A stretch of DNA of 12,715 bases from a virus (taxonomy: Monodnaviria; Loebvirae; Hofneiviricota; Faserviricetes; Tubulavirales; Inoviridae), in IMG/VR virus record IMGVR_UViG_2565956711_000001, one strand, 5' to 3'. The notes under the pieces are model-generated. The model was not told the origin of the DNA and made no database searches. It saw only the letters and a program-made list of their open reading frames with translations. Every line of letters starts with the position of its first letter. The first letter of the stretch is position 1. Both the position numbers and the translations under genes were made by a program. Of the stretch, positions 1-12,715 are shown piece by piece.

Positions 1-297
1 TCACCATTCCTCACGCCTTGCCGGTGAATCAAACTCCTTTTCTACAAAATTTGCAGGGTTTGTATAAGTTGAAAGCGGTGCAGAACTGAGCGAAATCTCC
101 ACCCCTAAAATATTTAACACTTTGTATAGACGCTCAAAACTTGCTTTTGAAGGATTTGACTCAAGGCGAGCATAAGTCTGCTGGGTTATACCCAACATGG
201 CAGATAATTCTCTTTGAGTTAATCCTTTTGATTTACGAAAACCAATTAGAAGTGGACGTAACTGGCTAAGAAGTCTAACGGGAAAAATAGTATCCAT
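1..297 (-). CDS. XRE-family HTH DNA-binding protein, HipB-like antitoxin/regulator (98 aa); any cognate toxin gene would lie beyond the left window edge
   Basis: Complete ORF with ATG at 295-297 and TGA at 1-3. The translation has a Cro/CI-type helix-turn-helix (GLTQRELSAMLGITQQTYARLESNP) and ends in ...EEW, like the C-terminal Trp of E. coli HipB (recalled from memory). No clear Shine-Dalgarno sequence. Confidence 0.55.
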   Translation of the reverse strand: MDTIFPVRLLSQLRPLLIGFRKSKGLTQRELSAMLGITQQTYARLESNPSKASFERLYKVLNILGVEISLSSAPLSTYTNPANFVEKEFDSPARREEW

Positions 298-413
298 AAG
301 TAGGTGGCCATGTCGATTACTTCATAATAAATTCACTCCTCGTAAGAAACAGCCTGTAAGGTGTCTTATTACTTTACAGCTTACAAGGTGTAAGGGTGAA
401 CTCGTTGTATTAA

Positions 414-608
414 CTAATACTGCTCAAATTTTAAAGGTTGCATCTCGCGCTGGCTGGGATTATATTTATTAAGGACTAGCATATAGTGGTGTACGCTGTT
501 ATCCTCTTTGTAATGAGGCTTATCAGTGTGTGAAGGGAGAGGGCGGACTCTGCTTTGCCCTCTCTCTTTCATGGACTTATTTAACTTTAAATGTTTTTTA
601 AAAGTCAT
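414..608 (-). CDS. Small basic hypothetical protein (64 aa), possibly translationally coupled to the upstream gene
   Basis: Its ATG (606-608) overlaps the TGA (605-607) of the 186-aa ORF in an ATGA arrangement. AT-rich; no recognisable motif; could be spurious. Confidence 0.3.
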   Translation of the reverse strand: MTFKKHLKLNKSMKERGQSRVRPLPSHTDKPHYKEDNSVHHYMLVLNKYNPSQREMQPLKFEQY

Positions 609-1165
609 TGCCTTATTGCAATGGTTTTATTAAAAATCCCAATCAATGTGTTTATTTTTTCATTTATCTTAATTTGCTTTTTCTCTTGCTCGAGAGAAAG
701 TTTTCTGAATTCATTTTCCCTGCTCGGCACGGCAATTATCAACTCTTCATAAATCTCCTTTGCTCCTGATACTTTTTCCAACTCGCTGCTGTATTTTTCG
801 ATAAGAGTTCTTATTTGAATATTTACATTTCTGTATTCATGACTGGTAGCACTTAAAACAAGTTGACTGGAATTTTTTTTGGGTGCCTCAATTAACTCTA
901 CGCTTTTCTTTACGACATTGAATTCAGATGTGACTGAGTATACATATTGATACGCGCCTGATTTTCTGACTTTACTCAATAATCCTTTTCTAACTAAACA
1001 CTGAATTTGGTTATAAGCAAAAGCTTTTGCCTTAAAATAACTTTTCGGAAGTGAAAATCGCTCGATAAGAATTTGAGCCACATCGTTACTGGTGAAGTTA
1101 TCTTTAGCAATATAGATTATTGCGGAAAATATGTACGACTCAGCGTTGGATACTCGACTATTCAT
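605..1165 (-). CDS. Hypothetical protein (186 aa), possible winged-helix N-terminal region plus lysine/glutamate-rich C-terminal coiled coil
   Basis: Uninterrupted 186-codon ORF with ATG at 1163-1165, in a markedly AT-rich stretch compared with its flanks. The C-terminus (EKKQIKINEKINTLIGIF) looks coiled-coil. No clear Shine-Dalgarno sequence. Confidence 0.5.
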   Translation of the reverse strand: MNSRVSNAESYIFSAIIYIAKDNFTSNDVAQILIERFSLPKSYFKAKAFAYNQIQCLVRKGLLSKVRKSGAYQYVYSVTSEFNVVKKSVELIEAPKKNSSQLVLSATSHEYRNVNIQIRTLIEKYSSELEKVSGAKEIYEELIIAVPSRENEFRKLSLEQEKKQIKINEKINTLIGIFNKTIAIRQ

Positions 1166-1186
1166 ATGACTAAAACAAGGCAGTTA

Positions 1187-1236
1187 ACTTAGGATTGCTA
1201 AGTATACAACAATGGCAGATACTTAGACAATCTAAG
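1187..1236. promoter_or_regulatory. Divergent promoter region with two palindromic candidate operators (ACTTAG-N5-CTAAGT at 1187..1203; CTTAGA-N3-TCTAAG at 1222..1236)
   Basis: Both inverted repeats were read directly from the sequence. They lie between the divergent starts at 1165 (minus) and 1263 (plus). Confidence 0.4.
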
Positions 1237-1262
1237 CATTCGAGGCCAATGAAGATGAATCA

Positions 1263-1595
1263 GTGTCTGAAAAAAATCCGATACCAGAAAGACTTAAGGA
1301 AGCGAGAAGCAGGGCGGGTTTATCACAGCGCTCATTGGGCCTCCTTGTTGGGTTTGATCCCGCTTCGGCTAGCAGTCGTATGAATCATTATGAGAAAGGG
1401 CGCCATGTCCCCGATATTGATACGCTTCGACGGATGGCGGCAGAGTTAAACGTGCCGTTGAACTACTTTTTTTGTGATGATCAGACCACAGCTGAACTTG
1501 CATTACTCATATCCCGGATGACAGAGGAAGAGCGAAGTAATCTTATCGAAGCACTCAAAAGGCATCCAGGCGAAAAGCATGCTGACAAAAAATGA
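1263..1595 (+). CDS. XRE-family (Cro/CI-type) helix-turn-helix transcriptional regulator (110 aa)
   Basis: The translation contains LKEARSRAGLSQRSLGLLVGF...MAAELNVPLNYFF, a typical HTH_XRE fold signature. The only in-frame start is GTG at 1263, preceded by a weak purine-rich stretch; TGA at 1593-1595. GC content is higher than in the neighbouring AT-rich genes. Confidence 0.7.
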   Translation: MSEKNPIPERLKEARSRAGLSQRSLGLLVGFDPASASSRMNHYEKGRHVPDIDTLRRMAAELNVPLNYFFCDDQTTAELALLISRMTEEERSNLIEALKRHPGEKHADKK

Positions 1596-1799
1596 TATTA
1601 CATATAAAGCGACTGAACTTTTTGAAGGTAACGAAAGTGTAGCATTACACTGATGCAATGAACCAAGCAGGACATTACAGTGGGAGACGCCCTCTCAGAT
1701 AACAAACTCAAAAGAGGGAGCCATAAATATATGTTTATCAATACAACCAGCATTCTGCCGACAACCGGGAAGCTGTCGGCTAAATCTTCCATGTCAGAA

Positions 1800-2234
1800 T
1801 TATGACGACTTATGTAGTTCCCGAATCATATGGTTGGCCAACAGGCTTTCCACCGGTATAACCGAATTGATTTTTACCGCTTTGACAATTTCTATCAACG
1901 AAAGGGTATTTTGCGCTAATTGGTCTCGCAATTCACTTACTTCAGCCTGCAACTGCTGGTTTCTGGCCAGTAAAGCCTGACGGGTTTTGCGGTTGACGTA
2001 TTGCTGTTTTTCTTTTGGGCGTAGATTCAATGGGCCAAGTTGCTGGTCAACATAGGCAGCAATTAGGCGTTTACGCTCTAGGCTGCTCAGCGTACTTAAA
2101 CCACCGTTAACGATACCTTTTGCCTTGAGCCTAATATGCAGGGCCTTGGCGGAAATAGGGGACTTGTCAAAGCCTTCAACCAGCATCAGTTGTAATTCGT
2201 GCTCAATCAGTGTGTTCAGTTCCTTGCCGCGCAT
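1800..2234 (-). CDS. Small coiled-coil protein, fourth gene of the tri-recombinase operon (GinD-like or TnpC-like accessory protein)
   Basis: Its ATG at 2232-2234 overlaps the TGA (2234-2236) of the upstream 788-aa recombinase in an ATGA arrangement. The ORF track starts one codon earlier at TTG 2237. Coiled-coil segment NQQLQAEVSELRDQLAQN. No catalytic motif recognised. Confidence 0.6.
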   Translation of the reverse strand: MRGKELNTLIEHELQLMLVEGFDKSPISAKALHIRLKAKGIVNGGLSTLSSLERKRLIAAYVDQQLGPLNLRPKEKQQYVNRKTRQALLARNQQLQAEVSELRDQLAQNTLSLIEIVKAVKINSVIPVESLLANHMIRELHKSS

Positions 2235-4600
2235 CAATCATTCTCCTGCATCAATTGTTGGTATTCAAGTGCAAAAAGCTGGGCCAGTGTACGGACTTTG
2301 CCCTCGGTGATTACTCCACCAGACAACACACTCTCAGCAGCAACCAGTTGTTGAGTCTTGGCACGACGATGCCATTGTGCTTGTATTGCCTCGAGTTGCT
2401 GTAACCGTCGTTCGATGTCGGCCAGTCTGGTCTGGTAATCAGGCTGATGTTGAGTAAGTTGGGTCAACTTCGAATGTGCTTGCTGTAAAGCCTGTTTTTT
2501 GGCAATCAGATTTGGTAGCTCATCTATCCGGCCTGTCAGCGTGAAATGTTCACAAAAGGCAGCACTCTGGCATTTCAGTCGATAAGGACATCCCCAGAGG
2601 TTAACTTCCCGCATACAGGAGCCAAATTTCAGCGGATACAGCACGGCATGTCTTGCCACCATGTCAGAGGCTTGCTCTGGTCCTTCTGCGTCGCGGATTT
2701 CTTCAAAGGCGGCAGCAACATCTTCAAAGAGGCCGTTAGCAAATGACGCCTCGACAAACCTGGCTACATCATCCCGATCGTCAAAAGTATGCAGGTTGGC
2801 TTTGATGGTATTGTCCAAAGTCATGTGTTCCGTGACCGCCAGTTGGCCGGTCCGTTTGACGATATCCAGTGGCGTAGCAATGGAGGACGAAGAGGGCGAG
2901 ACAGTTAGTGCTGTCGAAATCGGCTGCAAGGGCACCAACGAGGCGGCTTTTCGCCGTTCTGCAAGCGCCAGATGTTGATAATGCTGATTCTGCGTGATGT
3001 CCACTCGACCCATCAACATTGCCTGTAAGTGGTCAGAGATATCCGCAATAGCAAGAAAGGTATTGATGTTGTGCCGGGGAATGTGGGTACGCATCCGCGT
3101 CGAGGTGCCATCCTCCTCCAGTAATTGATATTTGCTGAATACTGATCCATCAGGCTCAACGTTGCCTAAGAATTTATTCATAAGTGTGTTAGTGAAGGGT
3201 ATCGGTGTAGCCAGCAAAGCCAGTGTGCGCTTTAATGCCAGCGAACCCTTCTCGTGTAGAAATAGCAGATCCTCGTAGTTAACTTGGTAGCGTTTGCCAT
3301 TTTCCATCCAGGCGTGTGTACAGGGTTCGTTGGCATTCGCCAGACCAAATTCGGTCTTAATGTAATGATTGAGAGCAGTCTTGGAATAATAGATAGATTT
3401 GCTGTTTTTCGGGCCTGGTATTTCTTGAACGGGCAGCACACCTCTTTTGCTAAGGGCTTTGGATGTTTTGTCCCGTTGTCCTGCCCGGCCCCGAAAACTT
3501 GAGGTAGTTTGGGTGATGTACTTCACCACATCGTCCAGTTCGACTCGTTCACCGGGCATGTTGCTGATGGCCTGTGGCAGGTAATCAGCAAAAGATTTTG
3601 CCCGTAGATAGGTAAGATGGCTGCGTATTGGTGCGGTCAACATTTTAACGGTACTGAATATACTCTCGACCAGCGGTACTGCCAGCGGTTCTACCCAATG
3701 CGTTCGCTCCCCAGCACCTTTGACACCAACATAACGGATACCAAGAAAATAATCGGGTAATCCCTTGTCCTGAAATCGTTTGCAGATTGCCGGATCATCA
3801 ATCTGGCGTTTAAACAGGGCATCCTGTCTGAGATTAAACGCTTCAATGGAGCGAAAGCCGGTAATAACCAATAACAACAGGCAATTTAACGCGATTTTCT
3901 CAGCATCACTTTCCACCCGCTGGATTAATGCAACTATGTTCAGAAATCCGCGAATGGTAATCAACGCATCTTCACCATCGGTAGTGGTATCAGACAGCTT
4001 GGCCTGCTGTTTCAGCGCCATGGTTTCCCGGGCTTTGCGGGTCAAGTTGGTTTTGTTGGTATACTTCACATCAGAGTTGTATTGCAGTTTAACCAACGTA
4101 AATGTGAAGTGATTGACCAATTTTTGAAGGCTAACGCACCGCCCTTTATAGTTAGCTGTATTGGGGTCACTAGGAGATGAAACGCTACTGAGAAGATCCA
4201 TCGCTCGTTGAATGACAACTGTGCTCAGGTAAGATGGATGGGTCTGTCCTGTCTCATAAAGCATCGCATGGTACCATCGTTTCAGAATCATCAAAGTTGC
4301 CTTTGCCACCGCTGGCGACATACTCCTATTTCCCTGTCGGTAAACCACTACCAGCATAGCTTTCATGAACTGACTATATTCTTTGTCGATGGGCAGATGT
4401 TCTACAATACCTTTGAATCTGTTCATCTCATCAAAACGTAATGTATTTCTGCCGTTCCCTCGCAACCATCCACTTCCCTGGTTACCACTTACCCAGATAT
4501 GATCATTCCATGTTTGGGCAAAATCAGCAGACAGGTGCTGTTCGAACCATTTTTTTTGCTCTTCAATAAAAGCCTGAAAATGCTCAAAGTGATTTTTCAT
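2234..4600 (-). CDS. Tyrosine site-specific recombinase, large (788 aa), third of three tandem recombinases (GinC-like), with a C-terminal Cys4 and coiled-coil extension
   Basis: Box I-like arginine in VITGFRSIE. Box II-like HIPRHNINTFLA ... LMGRVDITQNQHY gives the R-H-R-Y catalytic pattern. C-terminal cluster CMREVNLWGCPYRLKCQSAAFC followed by a Q/L-rich coiled coil. ATG at 4598-4600 is preceded by AGGTGA; the start overlaps the upstream gene by 17 nt. Confidence 0.8.
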   Translation of the reverse strand: MKNHFEHFQAFIEEQKKWFEQHLSADFAQTWNDHIWVSGNQGSGWLRGNGRNTLRFDEMNRFKGIVEHLPIDKEYSQFMKAMLVVVYRQGNRSMSPAVAKATLMILKRWYHAMLYETGQTHPSYLSTVVIQRAMDLLSSVSSPSDPNTANYKGRCVSLQKLVNHFTFTLVKLQYNSDVKYTNKTNLTRKARETMALKQQAKLSDTTTDGEDALITIRGFLNIVALIQRVESDAEKIALNCLLLLVITGFRSIEAFNLRQDALFKRQIDDPAICKRFQDKGLPDYFLGIRYVGVKGAGERTHWVEPLAVPLVESIFSTVKMLTAPIRSHLTYLRAKSFADYLPQAISNMPGERVELDDVVKYITQTTSSFRGRAGQRDKTSKALSKRGVLPVQEIPGPKNSKSIYYSKTALNHYIKTEFGLANANEPCTHAWMENGKRYQVNYEDLLFLHEKGSLALKRTLALLATPIPFTNTLMNKFLGNVEPDGSVFSKYQLLEEDGTSTRMRTHIPRHNINTFLAIADISDHLQAMLMGRVDITQNQHYQHLALAERRKAASLVPLQPISTALTVSPSSSSIATPLDIVKRTGQLAVTEHMTLDNTIKANLHTFDDRDDVARFVEASFANGLFEDVAAAFEEIRDAEGPEQASDMVARHAVLYPLKFGSCMREVNLWGCPYRLKCQSAAFCEHFTLTGRIDELPNLIAKKQALQQAHSKLTQLTQHQPDYQTRLADIERRLQQLEAIQAQWHRRAKTQQLVAAESVLSGGVITEGKVRTLAQLFALEYQQLMQEND

Positions 4601-6149
4601 TGGACTTCACCTGTTCCTGATGAAAACGGCAGCGGGCGATAACAGACTCAATTTCAAACTGTGTGGTTTCATGGATTAAAATGAGCGGATTTCGGGAATT
4701 ACCTACACCGTCTGAAATAGCGATTAGTTCATCGACTTCTTTTTTGACGCATTCAAGTAGAGCCTGATGTTCACCATCCGTAAAAGGGCGATAATACAGA
4801 CAGCCGTAACAAGAACGCACTTCGCTGAAAGGGCATGTACTACTGTTCCTGGAGCAACCACCAATTTTATCATGCAACTCGTCACCAACGAGTCCCACCA
4901 CTGGATGGCCTTTCCAATGTGCTGAGTCGACCAGTTCCCCAGTGAGCATCATAGCCACCATATTTTGCCAAACGGGATTCGACCCAAGCGCTTTAGCACG
5001 GATCAAGGCCAACGCGGGAGTTGCCATAATGTAGTATTTAGCTACGGCAAGAGAGGTGTGCCCCAGTACATGTGCTATCTCTTCAGCGCTAGCACCTTGC
5101 ATCGCCAAAGAGTGCCCAACATTGTGGCGTAAATCAGTGGGTGTAATTGTGGGCAATGCAGCTTCGCCACATGCTACGGCGGCTTGATATTCAGGAGGAC
5201 AGAAATTTAGGATTGCCTGATTAATTGCCTGAGACACATAATGCGGAGCTGAAACGCTGAAATCGAATAGTTTATCTTCGGGGTTTTTCTTATATCTCAC
5301 GGTATAGTTCATAATTAACTCCCCAATTTCTGGGGGGATCGCCAGAAATAACCGCTCTGTCGTCACTCGTCTTTGTTTAGCATATGGTAAAAAAACACTG
5401 TATCGAATCAGACCAGATTCCTGATTTCGTGTATCGATACGAACATCTTTGACCGCCAGCCTAGCGAGTTGTACTGGGCGTGCACCCGTTACATAAGCCA
5501 ACCCAAGGATAGCTGCATTGCGCACTTCGCTGTGACTGAAACTTTTGCCATCGCGTAACAACGAAGCCATTTCAAACAGTCCATTGCAAATCATGTTTTT
5601 TTCAAGAGGGTCAAGAATATTATCGATTTCTTGGTAACCCCCCCAATGTTCGAGATACGGTCGAGGGACGAACTCAAGATCATCGTAATCTTCAAGATTG
5701 AAACCTGGGAATGTTTCAGCACAAAGTATTTTTAATCCGAATAACACGGAATAAAAAGTAGCATTATCAATATCCTCTTTTTCGATAAATAATCGGAGCG
5801 TACTAAGCGAAAACCCACCATGTTCTCGACAATATGAAATGATATTCCTCCAATCAAGGTGCAACGCTGGAAGTTTGGTTGGAAATCTCGTCGATGCATA
5901 TTTGAAACAGATATACTTGTTTAATTTATTTGAGATATAATCTTGATTGAAAACAAGATATCGCCGACTGCCTGAATAATCGAAAGTCCATTTATTTCCT
6001 TTGTTAACAATATATTTATCATCAAACTCCATTGCCGTTTTTAGATAAATTCGATCAGGAATATCGAGTTCAAAGATAGCCTTAGCTAAATCAGGAGGGT
6101 AAACTGAGTTCCCTTCGTCAGATTTTAATGCATTATCAAATGATGTCAT
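4584..6149 (-). CDS. Tyrosine site-specific recombinase (521 aa), second of three tandem recombinases (GinB-like)
   Basis: Box I LGLAYVTGARPVQLARL. Box II TDLRHNVGHSLAMQGASAEEIAHVLGHTSLAVAKYY matches the H-x-x-R ... LGH ... Y pattern. C-terminal Cys cluster CSRNSSTCPFSEVRSCYGC. ATG at 6147-6149 overlaps the upstream gene by 14 nt. Confidence 0.8.
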   Translation of the reverse strand: MTSFDNALKSDEGNSVYPPDLAKAIFELDIPDRIYLKTAMEFDDKYIVNKGNKWTFDYSGSRRYLVFNQDYISNKLNKYICFKYASTRFPTKLPALHLDWRNIISYCREHGGFSLSTLRLFIEKEDIDNATFYSVLFGLKILCAETFPGFNLEDYDDLEFVPRPYLEHWGGYQEIDNILDPLEKNMICNGLFEMASLLRDGKSFSHSEVRNAAILGLAYVTGARPVQLARLAVKDVRIDTRNQESGLIRYSVFLPYAKQRRVTTERLFLAIPPEIGELIMNYTVRYKKNPEDKLFDFSVSAPHYVSQAINQAILNFCPPEYQAAVACGEAALPTITPTDLRHNVGHSLAMQGASAEEIAHVLGHTSLAVAKYYIMATPALALIRAKALGSNPVWQNMVAMMLTGELVDSAHWKGHPVVGLVGDELHDKIGGCSRNSSTCPFSEVRSCYGCLYYRPFTDGEHQALLECVKKEVDELIAISDGVGNSRNPLILIHETTQFEIESVIARCRFHQEQVKSNEKSL

Positions 6150-7530
6150 CGTTATATCTATCCATTATAGTATCTAACGTATTATGTAGCGCTGCATTGT
6201 CTTGAATAATTCGTTGGACATTGGCAGCATTAGCCTGCTCAGACAGGAAACGTTTTGCATATAGATCAGGCATTTGACTTGTCGGACTCCATCCCCCCAT
6301 CAGTCGTAGTTCATCTTTAGCTTCTTCCATTATCCCTGAGAGGGAAGGGACTTCAGCAATAAAGTGTGTTTTATTTTGCTGGCTTTTCAAATATTTTAAA
6401 TGCCATATTTTTTGCAATGTCAAAAAGGCCCAAGTATGTCGGGTTGTATGCGGAGTCAATCGTTGCAACGAGTCAGAGTACAACGGTGATTTGTACTCTG
6501 GATATTGGTTAGTGAAGACCTGATCTATTTTCGAAAAAATAGAATGAACTGATGTGTAGGACAAAGGCTTCGCTGACTGTTGACTCGATGTAAAGATGAA
6601 ATCGTGTTTATCAGTTTTTGGTCGAAGCTTTGCTATATAAATGCTTAAAAAAATATAATCCTGCTTATCGAGCTCCAACACACGATTAGCCCATGCATTT
6701 TTGAGAGATGGCGCATTCTTTCTTGGTTCGTATGCCTCGTCGACAGTTGTCACAATCAAACTAAACTTATCACCTTTTAAATTAGGTTTAATTGAGCTGC
6801 ACTCTAACAACAATAGCTCACCTGTTCGTAAACCATAATTTAACAACAGACGAATAATCAAAAAATTGCGGAACTGAAGATGCCCGGAAGGGAAAGGATT
6901 TAGCGGGTTATGCTTTTGGGCAGAAGAGGGGGTTATTATTCCATACAGGCTGAGCACCATTGCCCCAGACAAACTCTGAAATCCTTGGCTGCTGTGACTA
7001 TGTTGCGAAAATTTGTTTGATGTAAGCGTTCGATAATTCTCCCGGCAAAGCTGTAAACGGGTGTGTAAACGCGAAGCCAAAAGTGATAATGCTTTGGGAG
7101 AGTCATCCCGGTATGCAGGTGATATGTAGGTGTTAATCAAAAAAGAAATGAAATGGATCACAGCACGAACTCTAACTGTATGAGTTAAGCTATTGGCTTT
7201 TGTGACTCTCGTTAAAGACAACACATTTGACTGGACGTTGTGGCCATTTTCTAGATACATCCAAAATGCGGGCATTTCACCGACAGCAATGTCTGGATTG
7301 TGGTCAGATGAATAGAAGCTGTAGCAAAACGAGACACCATACTTTTGCCTCCAGAATTCGTAAAAAAACTTCACAGATTGAAGTGAAGCTGACTGTGTGG
7401 ACAATGAGCGGAAAGCCAAATGGTCAATATGGTACCTAAGGGGATACAGCAACGGCAGAGAGGTTTCCAAGTCCATCAGGATCCATCGCCTTTTACGGCC
7501 TGAGATAACCAACTGCTTTAGTGAATACAC
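6136..7530 (-). CDS. Tyrosine site-specific recombinase (464 aa), first of three tandem recombinases (GinA-like)
   Basis: C-terminal LTPHTTRHTWAFL ... LMGGWSPTSQMPDLYAKRF matches the H-x-x-R ... Y catalytic motifs of the integrase family. GTG start at 7528-7530 is preceded by GAGGT about 7 nt upstream. First gene of the operon, reading away from dif. Confidence 0.8.
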   Translation of the reverse strand: MYSLKQLVISGRKRRWILMDLETSLPLLYPLRYHIDHLAFRSLSTQSASLQSVKFFYEFWRQKYGVSFCYSFYSSDHNPDIAVGEMPAFWMYLENGHNVQSNVLSLTRVTKANSLTHTVRVRAVIHFISFLINTYISPAYRDDSPKALSLLASRLHTRLQLCRENYRTLTSNKFSQHSHSSQGFQSLSGAMVLSLYGIITPSSAQKHNPLNPFPSGHLQFRNFLIIRLLLNYGLRTGELLLLECSSIKPNLKGDKFSLIVTTVDEAYEPRKNAPSLKNAWANRVLELDKQDYIFLSIYIAKLRPKTDKHDFIFTSSQQSAKPLSYTSVHSIFSKIDQVFTNQYPEYKSPLYSDSLQRLTPHTTRHTWAFLTLQKIWHLKYLKSQQNKTHFIAEVPSLSGIMEEAKDELRLMGGWSPTSQMPDLYAKRFLSEQANAANVQRIIQDNAALHNTLDTIMDRYNDDII

Positions 7531-7673
7531 AATATTTACCTCAAAATTATCATGGATATGAAGAGAATGTACTCTGTACCTAATGCAAGAAACGAGAGGG
7601 AGATCAGAAATCCTAACGTATTGATTTATCAGTTAGTGGGAGTGTCATATGAACTTATTTACCACAGTAGGTG

Positions 7674-7701
7674 ATTTAACATAATATACATTATGCGCAC
7701 C
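7674..7701 (-). other. dif: dif chromosome dimer resolution site (XerC/XerD target), exact 28-bp match to the E. coli dif sequence as recalled
   Basis: The plus strand reads ATTTAACATAATATACATTATGCGCACC, the reverse complement of GGTGCGCATAA-TGTATA-TTATGTTAAAT (XerC arm, central region, XerD arm). Confidence 0.85.
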
Positions 7702-7986
7702 AGTGCGCAGATACGCCAGAAATCAGCCTGTAACCATCACCACGGCATTAAACGGTCATCGCTGTTACGTTCTTTCGTCTTCGACCGTCAGCCATCCGTA
7801 TCGCTTCTGAATACGCCGGAATGAAAAACAGGCTTTGCAGTGCCGGGAATTATTATGGCTGACGCCATAATGCTGTTTATGTCCTCGCTTCGCTGCGGGG
7901 CTTCCGGCGCTAAGCGCCTCCCATGCCTGACGGCATAAAAACCGGATATGCCGCCACGTCACCGCATGATACGTCCGTCGCCACCA

Positions 7987-9249
7987 TCACCGCGCGCGCT
8001 CCTCGTGGGAACTCGGTGCGTGCGCGGCGCTGGCGCGCCTGACTTTTTTCGCCTGTAACACGACAAGAATATCCGTCTTGTTCTTCTCGTCAGATGAACT
8101 GGTGAGCCAGCCTTTTGGCAGAAAGCTGAACCCGGTATCGGCGTTTGTGACCTTCGATTCAGCCAGGCCACCCAGCAGAATAATATCCCCGTCAGCCGCT
8201 GATACCTCCGTATTCACCTCGCGCTTAATCAGCGTCGGGCTGTTATTCACGCCCGTATCCGTCTTCGCAAAGCTGGAAAGCTGCTGCTTAATCACAAGGT
8301 CAATATTGTCAGTCCGGATTTGCGGTTTCACGTCGAGGATAACGCCACTAGAGCGATATTCAATCGACTGGATCGGCCTGTTGTCGGCGTAGCTCACCTG
8401 ACCCAGCACCGGAACCTCGTTACCGACTGAAAACGTGGCAGATGCGCCATCCTTCACCCTGAGCCGCGGGGAACTGACGACATGAAAACGACTGTCCGTC
8501 CTGAAAAGCTCATACAGCGCATCAAGAGAGCCTGTATTCACCCGGATAAAGTTATCAAAACCGCCAGACGCGCCAATCTGTATATTCAGCTTGCCGGAAA
8601 GCAGCTTCGCCGCCAGTGCCAGCCCGGAACCGTTACGCTCACTGGTCTGAACCTCAAACACGTAAGCTGCGACAATCACTTCTTCAGAGGCAGTATCAAT
8701 CAGCGGTAAAAGCGTCTGCAACCGCTTAATCTCTGACTTCCGGCCATAATAAACCAGCACATCCCCGGTACGGTTCATAAAGTCCGATGCCGTACCCGCT
8801 ACGGCCGCTTCTGGCGATATCTGCCCGGACGGTAACGAGTTACGCTGACTGTTAAACTGCCCGGTAAACTGTCCGGCCAGAATGTCAGACAGATACGCCA
8901 CGGAACGGAAGCGAGGCCGATAAACAAAGGTCTCCTGCGGCGGCACATACACTTTCGGCGTGAACGGCGCCACGTAGTCAATGCCCTGTTTGTTATAAAT
9001 CGCAATGTTCATATTGCCGAGATAGCGCTTAATAAATGCCCGTTCATCGATATCCGGCGTGATACGGAACGTCACCACCTTATCGGATTTGGCAAGCTCC
9101 GGGTCAAGCATAAACGGCTTATCGAACACCTGAACGTAAATCATGTTCAGCGCCTGCGGCAGCGGAACAGCGTTGAGCTCCAGACTGACGCCCTTCGCCA
9201 TAACCAGCCCCGGAACCAGTAAAAAAAGTAAACCTGTTATCAGCTTCAT
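7987..9249 (-). CDS. Filamentous phage pIV-like outer-membrane secretin (420 aa)
   Basis: N-terminal signal peptide (MKLITGLLFLLVPGLVMA). C-terminal secretin-like segment (VVSSPRLRVKDGASATFSVGNEVPVLG ... GDIILLGGL). Its ATG overlaps the Zot/pI stop in an ATGA arrangement at 9246-9249, and it sits immediately downstream of the pI-like gene as in Ff phages. Confidence 0.8.
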   Translation of the reverse strand: MKLITGLLFLLVPGLVMAKGVSLELNAVPLPQALNMIYVQVFDKPFMLDPELAKSDKVVTFRITPDIDERAFIKRYLGNMNIAIYNKQGIDYVAPFTPKVYVPPQETFVYRPRFRSVAYLSDILAGQFTGQFNSQRNSLPSGQISPEAAVAGTASDFMNRTGDVLVYYGRKSEIKRLQTLLPLIDTASEEVIVAAYVFEVQTSERNGSGLALAAKLLSGKLNIQIGASGGFDNFIRVNTGSLDALYELFRTDSRFHVVSSPRLRVKDGASATFSVGNEVPVLGQVSYADNRPIQSIEYRSSGVILDVKPQIRTDNIDLVIKQQLSSFAKTDTGVNNSPTLIKREVNTEVSAADGDIILLGGLAESKVTNADTGFSFLPKGWLTSSSDEKNKTDILVVLQAKKVRRASAAHAPSSHEERAR

Positions 9250-10280
9250 CGTATCGCCCCTGAATAAACCGTCACCGTTTCGCCGTCGATTTCACCCGTC
9301 ATCATCATGCCGTCAAAGCTGAACTGCGAAGCCGGCTCTATACGCAATCTGCCTGACGTGTCTGCAACAACAACCCATGCCTGACCATCGCGTTTAAGCC
9401 GTCCGGCAAGTCGCCATTTGTCCGACACAACGGGCTTAGCTGGCGCGGCAGGTACAAAAGACGCTGAATTATTTGCGGCGGGTAAATCTTTAGTCTGCTG
9501 TTCAGGCTCTGAATTACCGTTTGACGTGAAAAACCAGAACAGATAAAAAATGGCAATTACCGCCAGAATCAGTAACCCGACAGCTTTAAACCACAACATT
9601 TTAGAACTGAAAATATTCTGACGTTTATCGGTGACAAGTTCCCTTCCCTGCCCGTTCTCATGGGATTTATATAGGGGGAATATCGCCTTGTCATATTTAT
9701 TCTGATAACTGTTCGTCAGATTCGACTTAAACAGTTTGATACCCGTAAATACGTCCACACGGTAGCGGTTATGCAGACCCAGCGCCACATGCTTACTCAT
9801 GCGATACGTTGTTTCCACCCGGTCTTTAATGAATCGCGGAAGGTTGGCAACAGACTGATTCATAACCACTAAATCACAGGTTACGCCCGTTTTTTCATCG
9901 GCAAAATGGCGATGTTCTGCAATGAAAGAGCGATGATTTGCAGGAATCCCTTTATCGTTCTCCCATATGCGCCATGCTTCATCAATACAGATTAAATCCC
10001 CCGGACGGCAGAACGTATCATCCGCAATGCCTGAATCCGTTTTGTAGGGAAAGAAATTATCGTTCTGAACGTCTTCATTCTGAACAAGTAAAATTTCACC
10101 AAGTGATTCCCTGTCTGCCTTTTTAATATCAACGCAGTAATCATAAATACTTTGCGTGGCAAGGCCGTAAATATTACTGACAATGCGACGCCCAGCGATA
10201 CAGGCGGGAATAATGACGCTTGCCACCACTTCGTAAGATTTACCGCTTCCGGGAATGCCCACATACGCAGAAATAGCCAT
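9246..10280 (-). CDS. Zot/pI-family filamentous phage assembly ATPase (344 aa)
   Basis: Walker A motif GIPGSGKS near the N-terminus, Walker B-like LICIDEAW, and a single predicted transmembrane helix (AVGLLILAVIAIFYLFWFF) separating the cytoplasmic and periplasmic parts. This is the architecture of Ff gene I and Zot. Confidence 0.85.
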   Translation of the reverse strand: MAISAYVGIPGSGKSYEVVASVIIPACIAGRRIVSNIYGLATQSIYDYCVDIKKADRESLGEILLVQNEDVQNDNFFPYKTDSGIADDTFCRPGDLICIDEAWRIWENDKGIPANHRSFIAEHRHFADEKTGVTCDLVVMNQSVANLPRFIKDRVETTYRMSKHVALGLHNRYRVDVFTGIKLFKSNLTNSYQNKYDKAIFPLYKSHENGQGRELVTDKRQNIFSSKMLWFKAVGLLILAVIAIFYLFWFFTSNGNSEPEQQTKDLPAANNSASFVPAAPAKPVVSDKWRLAGRLKRDGQAWVVVADTSGRLRIEPASQFSFDGMMMTGEIDGETVTVYSGAIR

Positions 10281-10283
10281 AAA

Positions 10284-10571
10284 TTAACCAATCAAAGGAA
10301 TGCGACGAATAATAAAGCGCGTTAACAATGCTGAAAACATCAGTTTAATCCCTTCCGTGACCATAAACAGATTCACGAAATACCATACGCTATCAGGTAG
10401 TGAGGAAAACAACCCGGCAATATCAACAGATTTTGGCAACAGTGACGCCAGAACCGGAACAAACGCCTGTACGACAAAGTACAGGCCAAAAAACAGAATA
10501 AATTTGACAACCACCGTTCGCAGCACAAAACCCAGCGCCACGTTAAAGGCTGAAACCAGAATACCAAACAT
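10284..10571 (-). CDS. Filamentous phage pVI-like minor coat / membrane protein (95 aa)
   Basis: Small, very hydrophobic protein placed between pIII-like and pI-like genes. Strong Shine-Dalgarno sequence GGAGG about 5 nt upstream of ATG at 10569-10571. Confidence 0.6.
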   Translation of the reverse strand: MFGILVSAFNVALGFVLRTVVVKFILFFGLYFVVQAFVPVLASLLPKSVDIAGLFSSLPDSVWYFVNLFMVTEGIKLMFSALLTRFIIRRIPLIG

Positions 10572-10581
10572 AACGCCTCCG

Positions 10582-12465
10582 TCACGCAGTCAGAATGATA
10601 CGCAGCGAAATAATGCCCCAGATAAGCAGGAATACCGCTTTCAGAAGTGGCCTGATTTTTTCCAGAAGCTCGCAGTGAGAATCAATGGAATATTTATTGT
10701 CCCAGAGTTCGAACGACCATACCGGACACTGAACATCCTTCGATGAAATACTCAGGTTTTTAATGTCCGGCATTAATTCTGTAATTGGCTTGAGAATTTC
10801 CTCACCTGTAGGCGGTTTTTCAAGTTCCGGCGATTTAATGCCGGGGTCTTCGCCTAAATCAACAGAAGTATCGGTATCTGTGCCTGTACCAGGGTGTACA
10901 CCTGTATCCGTTCCCGCACCGGGTCTGGCATTAACCCACGACTGAGGAACGACAACCGGACTATAAAGCAAGCCCTTATCAAGTTTTACGCCAACAGCAT
11001 TAGCCGCAGCCGTCAGTTCAGCCGCCGTAAAAGGTTTATCAAGCGGTATCCCCTGATATCCTTCCTGAACAACAGTCTGACCTGCAAGGCCATTAATAAG
11101 ATTAACCAGCGCAGCCGGGTTTAACTGTTCCTCCGGCTTGAAATCTATATTATCAATAACCTCGCCATTAATTACCTGAGGTAAATTTGATGTATCAAAT
11201 TCTGTATTAAAAAATATCTGGTCTTTAACATCCTGAACATCATTCGTCGTTTTATACACGGCCTTCTCAGGGTGGCAAATACTTTTCCACTGCGTTTTGG
11301 GATTATCAGCCGTACTGCCCGGCGCAGGTACTTTCTCGCTTTTACATAAATCCCATGAGTTTTCAAGCGTAACCGTTGTTGTTCCAACAGATAAAACCAC
11401 AGTTACAATCGATGAATATCCACCAAAATAAGGATTCGGCTTTTCATACTGAAAGTCTTTAACGGAAACCGAATAAACCTTAAAATTTCTTGGCATCCTG
11501 ATATGTAAGTTATTGTCGTCAGACGCCTCATGATAAGTCACATTGGAATGAGAATAACCATTAATCGACTTATAAAGCGCAATCATTACCGGATTATCAC
11601 TGACAAGTACAGCATCGCCCTTTGCATCCCTGATATCAGTCGAATAAGGATATTTAGTACCCTTAACTGACACACGATATACATCATTCGGTAATGGCTG
11701 GCTTATCGGCGGTGGTGCATCAATATTGTAATAGGTTGGCGCAATCTGAACAGGTTTAACCTGATGATTATAAGGGCTTATCGAGTCCTGAATATTCTTC
11801 GCAGAAAAGCCAGTAGCATCAGAGGGCAAATAAACAGCAACAGGGCTTTTAGGTGAAGGTGCAACAGAAGAAGTAACAGTAGCGCCATTGGACAAATTAA
11901 GTAAATAAGTTCCATCATCCTGTTTTATTCCACTTGTAATATATTCAACAGCTTTTGCGCCCTGCTTTAAAGCAAGGTCAGCAACGGAAATAACACCCGC
12001 AGCCTGCCCCAGCAATCCCCATGTTGTCTGTCCGGCAGCCATCATATTACTGCCAAAACTTGAAATACCCGTGGATATCGAATCGTCAATTGTATGCTTC
12101 GCAAGGCCATAAGCAGCCGCGAAAACTGACGTTCCGGTGCAAAGCTGAGGATTACCCACTTTCTCGCCACACATGCGGATTGAATCAAAAACGTCAGGAC
12201 GTTCGCGTATAACCTCCGCAGCGACAGCGATACCCGCGCCCATACCGAGAGAACTGGCACCCGTTGCGAATACACGCCCCGCAGATTGAGAAACAACCTG
12301 AGCTTCACGGGTTTCAACCATTTGCTGAATTACACGTCCAAATCCGTCTGCTGTTACTGCATCAGCATGTACACCGGATGAAACCAGTAAAGACAATATA
12401 GTAATACCTAACTTTCCAGACCCTGAATGACCGCCCAGGCGCATAAAAGCCCCCATAAAAAACAC
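10582..12465 (-). CDS. Filamentous phage pIII-like adsorption / minor coat protein (627 aa by ORF track; true start probably the ATG at 12442-12444)
   Basis: Signal peptide (MRLGGHSGSGKLGITILSLLVSSGVHA), a G/T/D/P-rich linker (PGAGTDTGVHPGTGTDTDTSVDLGEDPG) and a C-terminal hydrophobic anchor (LLKAVFLLIWGIISLRIILTA). Sits between pVIII and pVI. The ORF track start at 12465 is GTG; the ATG at 12442-12444 is preceded by a GGGGG purine run. Confidence 0.65.
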   Translation of the reverse strand: MFFMGAFMRLGGHSGSGKLGITILSLLVSSGVHADAVTADGFGRVIQQMVETREAQVVSQSAGRVFATGASSLGMGAGIAVAAEVIRERPDVFDSIRMCGEKVGNPQLCTGTSVFAAAYGLAKHTIDDSISTGISSFGSNMMAAGQTTWGLLGQAAGVISVADLALKQGAKAVEYITSGIKQDDGTYLLNLSNGATVTSSVAPSPKSPVAVYLPSDATGFSAKNIQDSISPYNHQVKPVQIAPTYYNIDAPPPISQPLPNDVYRVSVKGTKYPYSTDIRDAKGDAVLVSDNPVMIALYKSINGYSHSNVTYHEASDDNNLHIRMPRNFKVYSVSVKDFQYEKPNPYFGGYSSIVTVVLSVGTTTVTLENSWDLCKSEKVPAPGSTADNPKTQWKSICHPEKAVYKTTNDVQDVKDQIFFNTEFDTSNLPQVINGEVIDNIDFKPEEQLNPAALVNLINGLAGQTVVQEGYQGIPLDKPFTAAELTAAANAVGVKLDKGLLYSPVVVPQSWVNARPGAGTDTGVHPGTGTDTDTSVDLGEDPGIKSPELEKPPTGEEILKPITELMPDIKNLSISSKDVQCPVWSFELWDNKYSIDSHCELLEKIRPLLKAVFLLIWGIISLRIILTA

Positions 12466-12498
12466 ATAAAATCAAAAAGATATTGAGCCATAAATATA

Positions 12499-12518
12499 AA
12501 GGGGCTGTTACGCCCCTT
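12499..12518 (-). terminator. Rho-independent terminator hairpin downstream of the major coat gene
   Basis: Perfect 7-bp GC-rich stem (AAGGGGC / GCCCCTT) with a 6-nt loop, 12 nt after the pVIII stop, followed on the minus strand by a T-rich run (TTTATATTTAT). Ff phages have a terminator at this position after gene VIII. Confidence 0.5.
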
Positions 12519-12529
12519 ACCTTTATGAA

Positions 12530-12715
12530 TTAAGCGCCACGAACCATACGCAAAATCCAGCGGACACCCGCAGAACCTGCATACAGAACAATAAGAGAAC
12601 CCGCTACCGCCATAATTCCGGTCAGAACGGAACCGAAATTAACGCTGTTAGTCAGTGGCGTAAGGTCAATACCTTTACCACCAACAACATCACCTTCAGC
12701 AGCAAATACGGCAGG
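12530..12715 (-). CDS. Filamentous phage major coat protein pVIII (partial; N-terminus off-window)
   Basis: Hand translation of the minus strand gives ...PAVFA/AEGDVVGGKGIDLTPLTNSVNFGSVLTGIMAVAGSLIVLYAGSAGVRWILRMVRGA*. It has a signal-peptide cleavage context (FA-AEGD, like the Ff mature N-terminus), a hydrophobic core and a basic C-terminus. TAA at 12530-12532. Not in the ORF track because the start lies outside the window. Confidence 0.7.
   Translation of the reverse strand, partial: PAVFAAEGDVVGGKGIDLTPLTNSVNFGSVLTGIMAVAGSLIVLYAGSAGVRWILRMVRGA

Follow-up and report, generated by a model that had tools for sequence, protein, structure and literature searches.

The DNA described here is a window of 12,715 nucleotides (the whole stretch that was analyzed), held in IMG/VR as virus record IMGVR_UViG_2565956711_000001 and assigned there to the Inoviridae. 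By homology and gene order, positions 1-7680 of the window are identified as the recombination end of a mobile genomic island of the GInt type ("genomic island with three integrases"), in which ginA, ginB, ginC and ginD stand in this order and are followed by cargo, and the four predicted products are assigned to GinA, GinB, GinC and GinD of a divergent GInt subfamily. The main subject of this analysis is a four-cysteine (Cys4) module with a helical tail, which GinB and GinC carry beyond their catalytic domains. The four genes are as follows.

6136..7530, minus strand: ginA-like tyrosine recombinase, 464 amino acids (aa) from a GTG at 7530; match to PF00589 with E = 4e-7
4584..6149, minus strand: ginB-like tyrosine recombinase, 521 aa; R224, K258, R341, H364 and Y373
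2234..4600, minus strand: ginC-like divergent protein of the tyrosine-recombinase fold, 788 aa; invariant R250, K294, H506, R509, R532 and Y541
1800..2237, minus strand: small ginD-like protein, 145 aa, C-terminal part resembling a leucine zipper, no cysteine

In the list of open reading frames (ORFs) of the window, successive genes along this operon overlap by 14 (ginA/ginB), 17 (ginB/ginC) and 4 (ginC/ginD) nucleotides, which suggests translational coupling. The longest ORF of ginA begins at the GTG at 7530, and RefSeq places the start at 7476 (446 aa); the choice sets the distance from ginA to the neighboring dif site at about 145 or about 200 bp, respectively. GinB and GinC both have the tyrosine-recombinase fold. 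GinB matches the Pfam family Phage_integrase with E = 1e-10, GinC gives only a sub-threshold match to this family (aa 492-545, E = 0.021), and GinD gives weak matches to the coiled-coil families HALZ and FtsB. In sequence searches of the PDB, GinB found weak Cre box-I matches alone (E about 0.1), and GinC found nothing as a single sequence and nothing beyond XerD at E = 8.9 as a profile. A megablast search with the whole window against a phage collection gave no match. A first-pass annotation of the same DNA had described a trio of recombinases with correct ORFs and coordinates, and it had missed both ginD as the fourth gene and the known GInt family to which the operon belongs.

Positions 1 to about 7702 are found with 99.9-100% identity in many E. 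coli chromosomes, and the recombinase block is also carried by conjugative plasmids of E. coli, Klebsiella, Salmonella and Raoultella; an identical 7.7-kb end is seen at different sites in many chromosomes and conjugative plasmids. Because the block recurs in so many chromosomes and plasmids, this part of the window is taken to be the end of a mobile element. In GInts the ginABCD operon marks one island end, and recombination requires each of the four genes (PMC5385486). One published GInt lies next to ssb in Chryseobacterium artocarpi (PMC5385486), and another, in E. coli Sakai (ECs_3512-3509), is given in Additional file 10 of PMC10214605. In BLASTP comparisons with the Sakai GInt, A paired with GinA (1.6e-14), B with GinB (7e-8) and C with GinC (2.5e-8). 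Profiles of the subfamily (that of GinA from 36 orthologs) match solely the positional counterparts in distant operons, with 74-175 bits for GinA, 25-194 bits for GinB and 47-240 bits for GinC. The scores of A, B, C and D are 117, 169, 210 and 36 bits in the C. artocarpi GInt; in the Sakai GInt those of A, B and C are 100, 25 and 47 bits and D finds no match. The GinD profile has a match in only one operon besides that of C. artocarpi, a Pseudomonas operon (25 bits), and GinD homology is the weakest link of the GInt assignment.

A scan with the GinC alignment, taking one genome per species, detected 61 loci in Enterobacterales, Acinetobacter, Psychrobacter, Moraxella, Aeromonas, Vibrio, Photobacterium, Providencia and Kangiella, and nearly all of the complete ones show the order A-B-C-D. 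An exhaustive hidden Markov model search of 1.84 billion cluster representatives yielded 532 GinC-like proteins with E <= 1e-3. The order A-B-C-D was seen again in the contigs of all five distant GinC representatives (L064-L068), which come from Pseudomonas, C. artocarpi, an alphaproteobacterial metagenome-assembled genome, a source whose GinC clusters with a Massilia protein, and one further source; the C. artocarpi operon adjoins the start of ssb, in agreement with its description in PMC5385486. The locus in the window shows three recombinase-type genes and a small fourth gene, co-oriented and about 150-200 bp from the island end, with A, B, C and D homologous to the GInt proteins in the same order. 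Catalytic residues are present in GinA and GinB, and GinC is a divergent recombinase-fold protein of the kind that is usually annotated as hypothetical. Cargo begins right after ginD, helix-turn-helix (HTH) genes first and then defense genes, and the insertion is site-specific with short direct repeats.

The extensions of GinB and GinC start after the helix that bears the catalytic tyrosine (Y373 in GinB and Y541 in GinC). The models referred to below were made by AlphaFold2 from family alignments, with confidence given as the predicted local distance difference test (pLDDT).

4800..4856, minus strand: GinB Cys4 cluster C432-x6-C439-x7-C447-x2-C450, CSRNSSTCPFSEVRSCYGC (aa 432-450), followed by a conserved Y-x-P-F
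4590..4769, minus strand: GinB C-terminal helical hairpin, aa 461-482 and 488-520, AlphaFold2 model with block pLDDT of 64-85
2552..2617, minus strand: GinC Cys4 cluster C662-x8-C671-x5-C677-x5-C683, CMREVNLWGCPYRLKCQSAAFC (aa 662-683)
2360..2521, minus strand: GinC helical hairpin rich in Q and L, helices 694-716 and 720-747, AlphaFold2 model
2264..2290, minus strand: conserved GinC C-terminal motif TLAQLFALE, aa 771-779, where the model is of low confidence

The spacing x6/x7/x2 that the first-pass annotation gave for the 521-aa protein is correct, and the peptide CSRNSSTCPFSEVRSCYGC is present as quoted there. The protein does not end with this cluster, as was stated, because 71 more residues with two modeled helices lie beyond C450. 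The GinB model has a mean pLDDT of 80 and places the cysteines amid short strands and turns; the consensus of the module is G-G-C-x-[RY]-x4-6-C-P-F-x-x-V-R-x-C-Y-G-C-L-Y-F-x-P-F, and H461, E471, P488, V503 and R506 are conserved in the tail. For the 788-aa protein the peptide CMREVNLWGCPYRLKCQSAAFC is likewise present, and the cysteines are spaced C-x8-C-x5-C-x5-C rather than C-x7-C-x5-C-x4-C as had been proposed. The consensus here is L-H-P-L-x-F-G-x-C-x-R-x6-C-P-x-R-x-K-C-Q-S-x3-C-x-x-F-x-L-T-G-R. The GinC model, with a mean pLDDT of 74, shows a hairpin broken at P720 and a terminal helix at 772-786. The tail is indeed rich in Q and L (17% Q and 14% L, against 6% and 11% in the whole protein), and the supposed coiled coil of about 90 residues is replaced by a hairpin of 54 residues, a nonhelical stretch and the terminal helix; by a crude heptad measure, periodicity is strong at 697-740 only. 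At the C terminus T771, L772, L775, F776, A777 and E779 are at least 90% conserved. Matches of the GinC tail to CHASE3 and ARM were rejected as coiled-coil noise. The segment of about 240 residues that had been noted ahead of box I of the 788-aa protein exists (box I holds R250), and it is no distinctive trait, since the 521-aa protein has about 223 residues there.

The significance of the clusters comes from their conservation across homologs, because clustering within a single sequence is suggestive at most: when the same number of cysteines was placed at random within one sequence, an equally tight cluster arose in 4.8% of the trials for the 521-aa protein and in 0.4% for the 788-aa protein. 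Among full-length database homologs, the queries included, the four cysteines are present in 68 of 69 GinB sequences and in all 87 GinC sequences. In the loci taken from genomes of Enterobacterales, Acinetobacter, Psychrobacter, Aeromonas, Vibrio, Photobacterium and Providencia, they are kept with identical spacing in every GinB (42/42) and every GinC (47/47), where pairwise identity goes down to 24-27% and invariant columns make up only 38 of 511 in GinB and 41 of 767 in GinC (5-7%). C-x8-C-x5-C-x(2,3,5)-C was found at the same C-terminal position in 66 of 67 full-length GinC-like representatives (proteins of at least 600 aa among the top 150 representatives of clusters at 50% identity); in many of these the profile match stopped near residue 550, and there the cluster came to light without help from the alignment. 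The five distant GinB proteins all contain C-x(2-9)-C-x7-C-x(2-3)-C followed by F-x-P-[FW]-x-x-G-x-H. All the other cysteines of GinB and GinC are variable, and neither GinA, which is also devoid of a C-terminal extension, nor GinD has a conserved cysteine.

The NCBIfam model NF041502 ("integrase_1," named "site-specific integrase") is of the GinB type: it spans distant GinB proteins from end to end (464.5 bits in L068, 334 bits in L066), and its last approximately 90 positions are the region of the Cys4 cluster and the helices. The 521-aa GinB aligns from aa 334-478 to profile positions 318-460, that is, from box II through the Cys4 cluster, with 86.7 bits against a cutoff of 350; a score so far below the cutoff marks GinB as belonging to a related subfamily and not as a member of NF041502. 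A database search with a profile of the GinB module returned short fragments of GinB-like proteins only and no new domain context. Within the GinB/GinC family the module is the rule and no peculiarity of this locus. The conservation that the first-pass annotation had named as a check on its proposal is observed in every homolog set, which speaks in its favor, and its view that such extensions are atypical holds for the tyrosine recombinase superfamily at large, not within the GInt GinB/GinC family.

It is also evident from an alignment of 66 diverse GinC-like proteins, that of Sakai included, that R250, K294, H506-x-x-R509, R532 and Y541 of GinC are invariant or nearly so. R250 lies within a classic T-G-x-R-S-x-E box I, and R532 stands where His or Trp is usual. 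GinC has been said to lack the first Arg (PMC5385486) or the whole RHRY motif (PMC10214605), and the R-K-H-R-R-Y set, as aligned here, is in conflict with these descriptions. Because AlphaFold is unsure at GinC 509-573, where its confidence is low, the catalytic assignment rests on the motif and the profile alignment. The invariant set supports the "catalytic tyrosine" earlier assigned to the 788-aa protein, despite the contrary statements of the two papers, and it makes a catalytically competent third recombinase, as opposed to a dead scaffold, a live possibility for GinC.

Four invariant cysteines with fixed spacing across divergent homologs, in cytoplasmic DNA enzymes, argue strongly for a metal site, and the GinB and GinC clusters very likely bind metal. 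Disulfides were set aside, the proteins being presumably cytoplasmic DNA enzymes. In Cre (helix N), Xer and lambda Int (its tail), the segment past the tyrosine helix enters the neighboring protomer and sets which subunits are active. We infer from the conservation and the position of the module that it may play a related part. A knot of about 20 residues after the catalytic domain would chelate a structural metal ion, with Zn2+ favored, and would hold the antiparallel helical hairpin rigidly in position; the two proteins' hairpins, perhaps joined by the coiled-coil C terminus of GinD, would then make the subunit-subunit contacts by which a hetero-oligomeric synaptic complex is assembled and gated. 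The module would thus extend the C-terminal trans-contacts of Cre, Xer and lambda Int for half-of-the-sites control. That a metal-stiffened knot and hairpin assemble or gate the multi-subunit recombinase in this way seems to us an evenly balanced proposition. Hetero-oligomerization of the recombinases through their tails, which the first-pass annotation had raised, is plausible because none of the four gin genes is dispensable (PMC5385486), neighboring genes overlap, and the extensions lie past the tyrosine helix. GinD and Srap, the small protein of a related system, are both predicted coiled coils (PMC10214605).

Several observations weigh against this proposal. The pLDDT at the clusters themselves is 57-77 in GinB and below 50 in GinC. 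The two CxxC (or CPxC) knuckles that a classical zinc ribbon bears on beta-hairpins are absent, as GinB has one CxxC and GinC none, and a scan of the isolated modules found no match of either to a Pfam zinc or iron-sulfur (Fe-S) family: zf-CCCH_2 came up for 2 of 17 GinB modules at E = 1.2, and the GinC module gave no zinc-family match. The label "zinc-ribbon-like," which had been attached to the clusters, is therefore not established. A comparison with hhalign shows no significant similarity between the modules of GinB and GinC (E = 0.069) or between the full GinB and GinC profiles (E = 0.52), and homology of the two modules is accordingly not claimed. The full Cys4 set is not universal either, since the Sakai-type GInt has two cysteines per protein. 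Sakai GinB (L002, E. coli O157 Sakai, 6025-7338, minus strand) has only the last pair, C425-x2-C428, and is truncated right after C-x2-C-K-K-F-x-P-W, and NF041502 covers it to profile position 392 of 484 only; Sakai GinC (L002 4397-6028, minus strand) has only the first pair, C483-x8-C492. The loss in the Sakai type hits complementary halves of the GinB and GinC clusters, a pattern that could reflect a decayed element or a 2+2 site shared by both subunits. Finally, the conserved Arg and Lys residues at the clusters (R445 of GinB, which is invariant, and R664, R674, K676 and R691 of GinC) fit DNA binding equally well.

The last point leads to a different reading, possible though on balance doubtful, in which the Cys4 module is mainly a DNA-binding device that contacts accessory or flanking sequence of the attachment (att) site, here in the region of the dif XerD arm, or bridges two DNA segments, and in which assembly is independent of it. 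Basic residues lie in or beside both clusters, and nucleic-acid binding is common among small Cys4 modules. The targets of GInts are highly sequence-specific (PMC5385486), and here the target is a 7-bp core within dif. However, the module is common to GInts with unrelated targets (dif; ssb in C. artocarpi; an ABC-transporter gene in P. syringae) and so cannot by itself encode target specificity, and in Cre, XerH and lambda Int the region past the catalytic tyrosine would appear to face the neighboring protomer rather than DNA. The roles in DNA binding and in assembly are compatible with each other. Starting again from assembly by a metal-stiffened knot and hairpin, a wider scheme can be drawn, which we consider unlikely: the metal module (Fe-S or zinc), the hairpins and GinD would together form a switch of assembly and directionality, with GinC as a third active subunit, aimed at the XerD arm of dif. 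If this were true, GinB and GinC would be the first members of the tyrosine recombinases to have a module dedicated to a metal cofactor, and they would be convergent with the zinc-ribbon/coiled-coil switch of large serine integrases.

As to the metal, zinc is our preferred candidate and seems somewhat likely, an Fe-S cluster is a good deal less so, and anything else is less probable still; these are our estimates. In the Fe-S case, which we regard as rather improbable, the clusters would hold [4Fe-4S] or [2Fe-2S] with a structural or DNA-sensing role and possible sensitivity to redox state, for which EndoIII/MutY, AddB, Cas4, Dna2 and primase provide precedents. The spacings are nearer to Fe-S loops than to zinc ribbons (x8/x5/x(2-5) in GinC, with no CxxC in the x5 subfamily), and the distant GinC proteins end in C-x5-C-x2-C, the mirror image of the C-x2-C-x5-C of the EndoIII/RecB type. 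Many GinB and GinC proteins also have a Cys-Pro pair at their second cysteine. On the other hand, no similarity to any Fe-S family was found, a literature search for an Fe-S tyrosine recombinase gave none, and the CxxC of GinB is modeled at a short helical turn, a typical trait of zinc knuckles. Zinc knuckles are often modeled confidently by AlphaFold2 and the clusters here are not, which would fit Fe-S, but the shallow alignments (46-65 sequences) suffice to account for the low pLDDT. That the clusters are a lineage-specific decoration or a chance grouping without function, as the only mildly unlikely clustering within single sequences and the loss of half of the cysteines from both Sakai-type proteins might hint, is very improbable and was rejected on the conservation data, given that their identity and spacing are invariant at 24-40% sequence identity across several classes and phyla while other cysteines vary.

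The island end coincides with a dif site, and the target is the outer part of its XerD arm.

7674..7701, no strand assigned: E. coli dif site, 28 bp, once in the window and never in shuffled sequences
7674-7680: ATTTAAC, the outer 7 bp of the XerD arm, crossover and direct repeat at the ginA-proximal end of the island

The 28 bp at 7674-7701 are the canonical E. coli dif. The same 28 bp are found in K-12 at 1,590,750, to the left of hipA; the dif comparison also covered positions 4751-4778 of L074. The empty site in K-12 reads cagacatg-ATTTAAC-ataatatacattatgcgcacc, the far junction of the island in EC09 reads cagacatg-ATTTAAC-ttatgttgtgtgag (ATTTAAC at L073 26777-26783), and the junction on the ginA side reads ggtg-ATTTAAC-ATAATATACATTATGCGCAC. 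It follows from the comparison of the K-12 and EC09 junctions that the island in EC09, of about 37.7 kb, is inserted in the outer 7 bp of the XerD arm and flanked by ATTTAAC, and that it leaves dif intact on the ginA side. Similarity to other chromosomes and plasmids stops at 7680-7704. Copies on plasmids terminate in dif-like sites that have the XerD arm in common and differ in their central regions, and one copy shares ATTTAAC only. In 24 of 40 related loci from many genera, a complete dif of the host type, its XerD arm free of mismatches, is found upstream of ginA at a distance of about 80-370 bp (mostly 100-150 bp); one more locus is cut off by the end of its contig. In the distant Pseudomonas operon dif likewise lies upstream of ginA, with one arm mismatch. 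At the far end no second dif-like site or copy of the XerD arm was found within 3 mismatches in L073 or at <=1 mismatch in 80 kb.

Integration by host XerCD, as in the integrative mobile elements exploiting Xer (IMEX), was rejected: the island has its own recombinases, its crossover repeat lies outside the central TATACA region and it lacks a second flanking dif-like site, so that it is not an XerCD-dependent IMEX. No report of XerD-arm targeting by a GInt was found in the literature searched. In one chromosome and two plasmids, the dif or dif-like site is directly adjoined on its XerC-arm side by a transposase gene of the ISNCY family.

L001 22819-24216, L070 2021-3401 and L071 1983-3386: ISNCY-family transposase gene

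This placement suggests that an insertion sequence of the ISNCY family also targets Xer sites, and that dif is a three-way hotspot for island, phage and insertion sequence.

On the other side of the operon, beyond ginD, positions 1-1800 of the window contain an HTH gene at 1-297 (minus strand), a 186-aa ORF at 605-1165 (minus strand) and an HTH gene at 1263-1595 (plus strand). The two HTH genes, of the XRE type, and the unannotated 186-aa ORF accompany the operon with about 100% identity in the closest chromosomal copies, and they may be regulators of the island rather than cargo. Farther past ginD, the cargo of EC09 is of a defense type by its annotation names (NACHT, AlbA, SEC-C, ATP-dependent nuclease and UvrD helicase; L001 2935-14912), and by annotation names alone the nuclease and UvrD helicase resemble Gabija. 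A variant cargo in E. coli G5 (L069 5379-11712) consists of a restriction endonuclease, an HNH endonuclease, a nucleotidyltransferase, a ThiF-like protein, an MPN/JAB protein and a 3'-5' exonuclease; the set of nucleotidyltransferase, ThiF-like and MPN/JAB proteins is similar to the cyclic oligonucleotide-based antiphage signaling system (CBASS), again by annotation names alone. The remainder of the window belongs to a separate element, which sits at the same dif just outside the island.

7705-12715: filamentous (inovirus-type) prophage, with genes for a secretin (7987-9249), a Zot-like protein (9246-10280), a DUF2523-like protein (10284-10571) and a pIII-like protein (10582-12465)

This prophage is present as two tandem copies in E. 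coli G5 (L069 19700-35100) and may be a member of the UPphi group of enterobacterial filamentous phages.

The locus is of a known kind, a GInt, and does not in itself form a new category. The new points, to the extent that this was checked, are that a Cys4-plus-hairpin module marks GinB and GinC throughout the family, that GinC has a full catalytic signature and that the XerD arm is targeted. The words cysteine and zinc are absent from the main texts of PMC5385486, a 2024 bioRxiv preprint on GInts and PMC10214605, and a full-text literature search found no report of zinc or Fe-S in tyrosine recombinases; the module thus seems not to have been described, even though published elements contain it. 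GInts and related elements occur widely in Proteobacteria and also outside them, and here they reside on E. coli chromosomes and large conjugative plasmids with defense and other cargo. Such a broad range of hosts and replicons would be explained by a target within dif, because dif is found in nearly every chromosome and many plasmids. A module that is invariant in exactly two of the four subunits gives a precise experimental handle on a multi-recombinase machine. Should the metal turn out to be an Fe-S cluster, no precedent for it in a tyrosine recombinase is known to us.

Among known systems, an architectural analog of the proposed module would be seen in large serine recombinases of the A118/LI/phiC31 type, which have a zinc-ribbon domain with an embedded coiled coil. 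Iyer and Aravind, in 2012, reportedly described an N-terminal domain of ALOG/DIRS1-type tyrosine recombinases with a zinc-ribbon insert. This case is similar in that a zinc-binding insert occurs in a domain derived from a tyrosine recombinase, but the insert there belongs to the DNA-binding domain at the N terminus, in eukaryotic elements and in plant transcription factors, and it is unrelated in position and sequence. IMEX such as CTXphi, VGJphi, TLCphi and the gonococcal island resemble the present island in lying at dif or dif-like sites and in leaving a functional dif; they differ in using host XerCD with a 6-bp exchange in the central region and no integrase, whereas the island has an outer 7-bp repeat and its own recombinases. 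The Tn554 family (TnpA, TnpB and TnpC) also combines two tyrosine recombinases with a small accessory protein and integrates in a site- and orientation-specific manner, but it has no counterpart of GinC or Tfp and is found in Gram-positive hosts; GinD has been reported to be weakly similar to TnpC (PMC5385486).

The SEs (integrative elements that circularize with a strand bias; PMC9345347, PMC10214605) likewise have two catalytic recombinases, a large Tfp and the small coiled-coil Srap, and all four of their proteins are needed for attL x attR recombination, which follows a 6-bp spacer logic (PMC9345347, PMC10214605). Their gene order is intA-tfp-intB-srap, with the tfp gene second, whereas its counterpart is third here, and Tfp and GinC form separate BLAST clusters (PMC10214605). 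Compared with the published GInts, the GinC of this island is longer (788 aa versus about 540-745 aa), R250 is invariant where the first Arg was reported to be lacking in GinC (PMC5385486), and insertion occurs in the outer XerD arm of dif or of dif-like plasmid sites, not in an ABC-transporter, ssb or ribonucleotide reductase gene. In common with them (PMC5385486) it has two catalytic recombinases, a large divergent protein of the recombinase fold, a small coiled-coil protein, cargo right after ginD, and site-specific insertion with short direct repeats.

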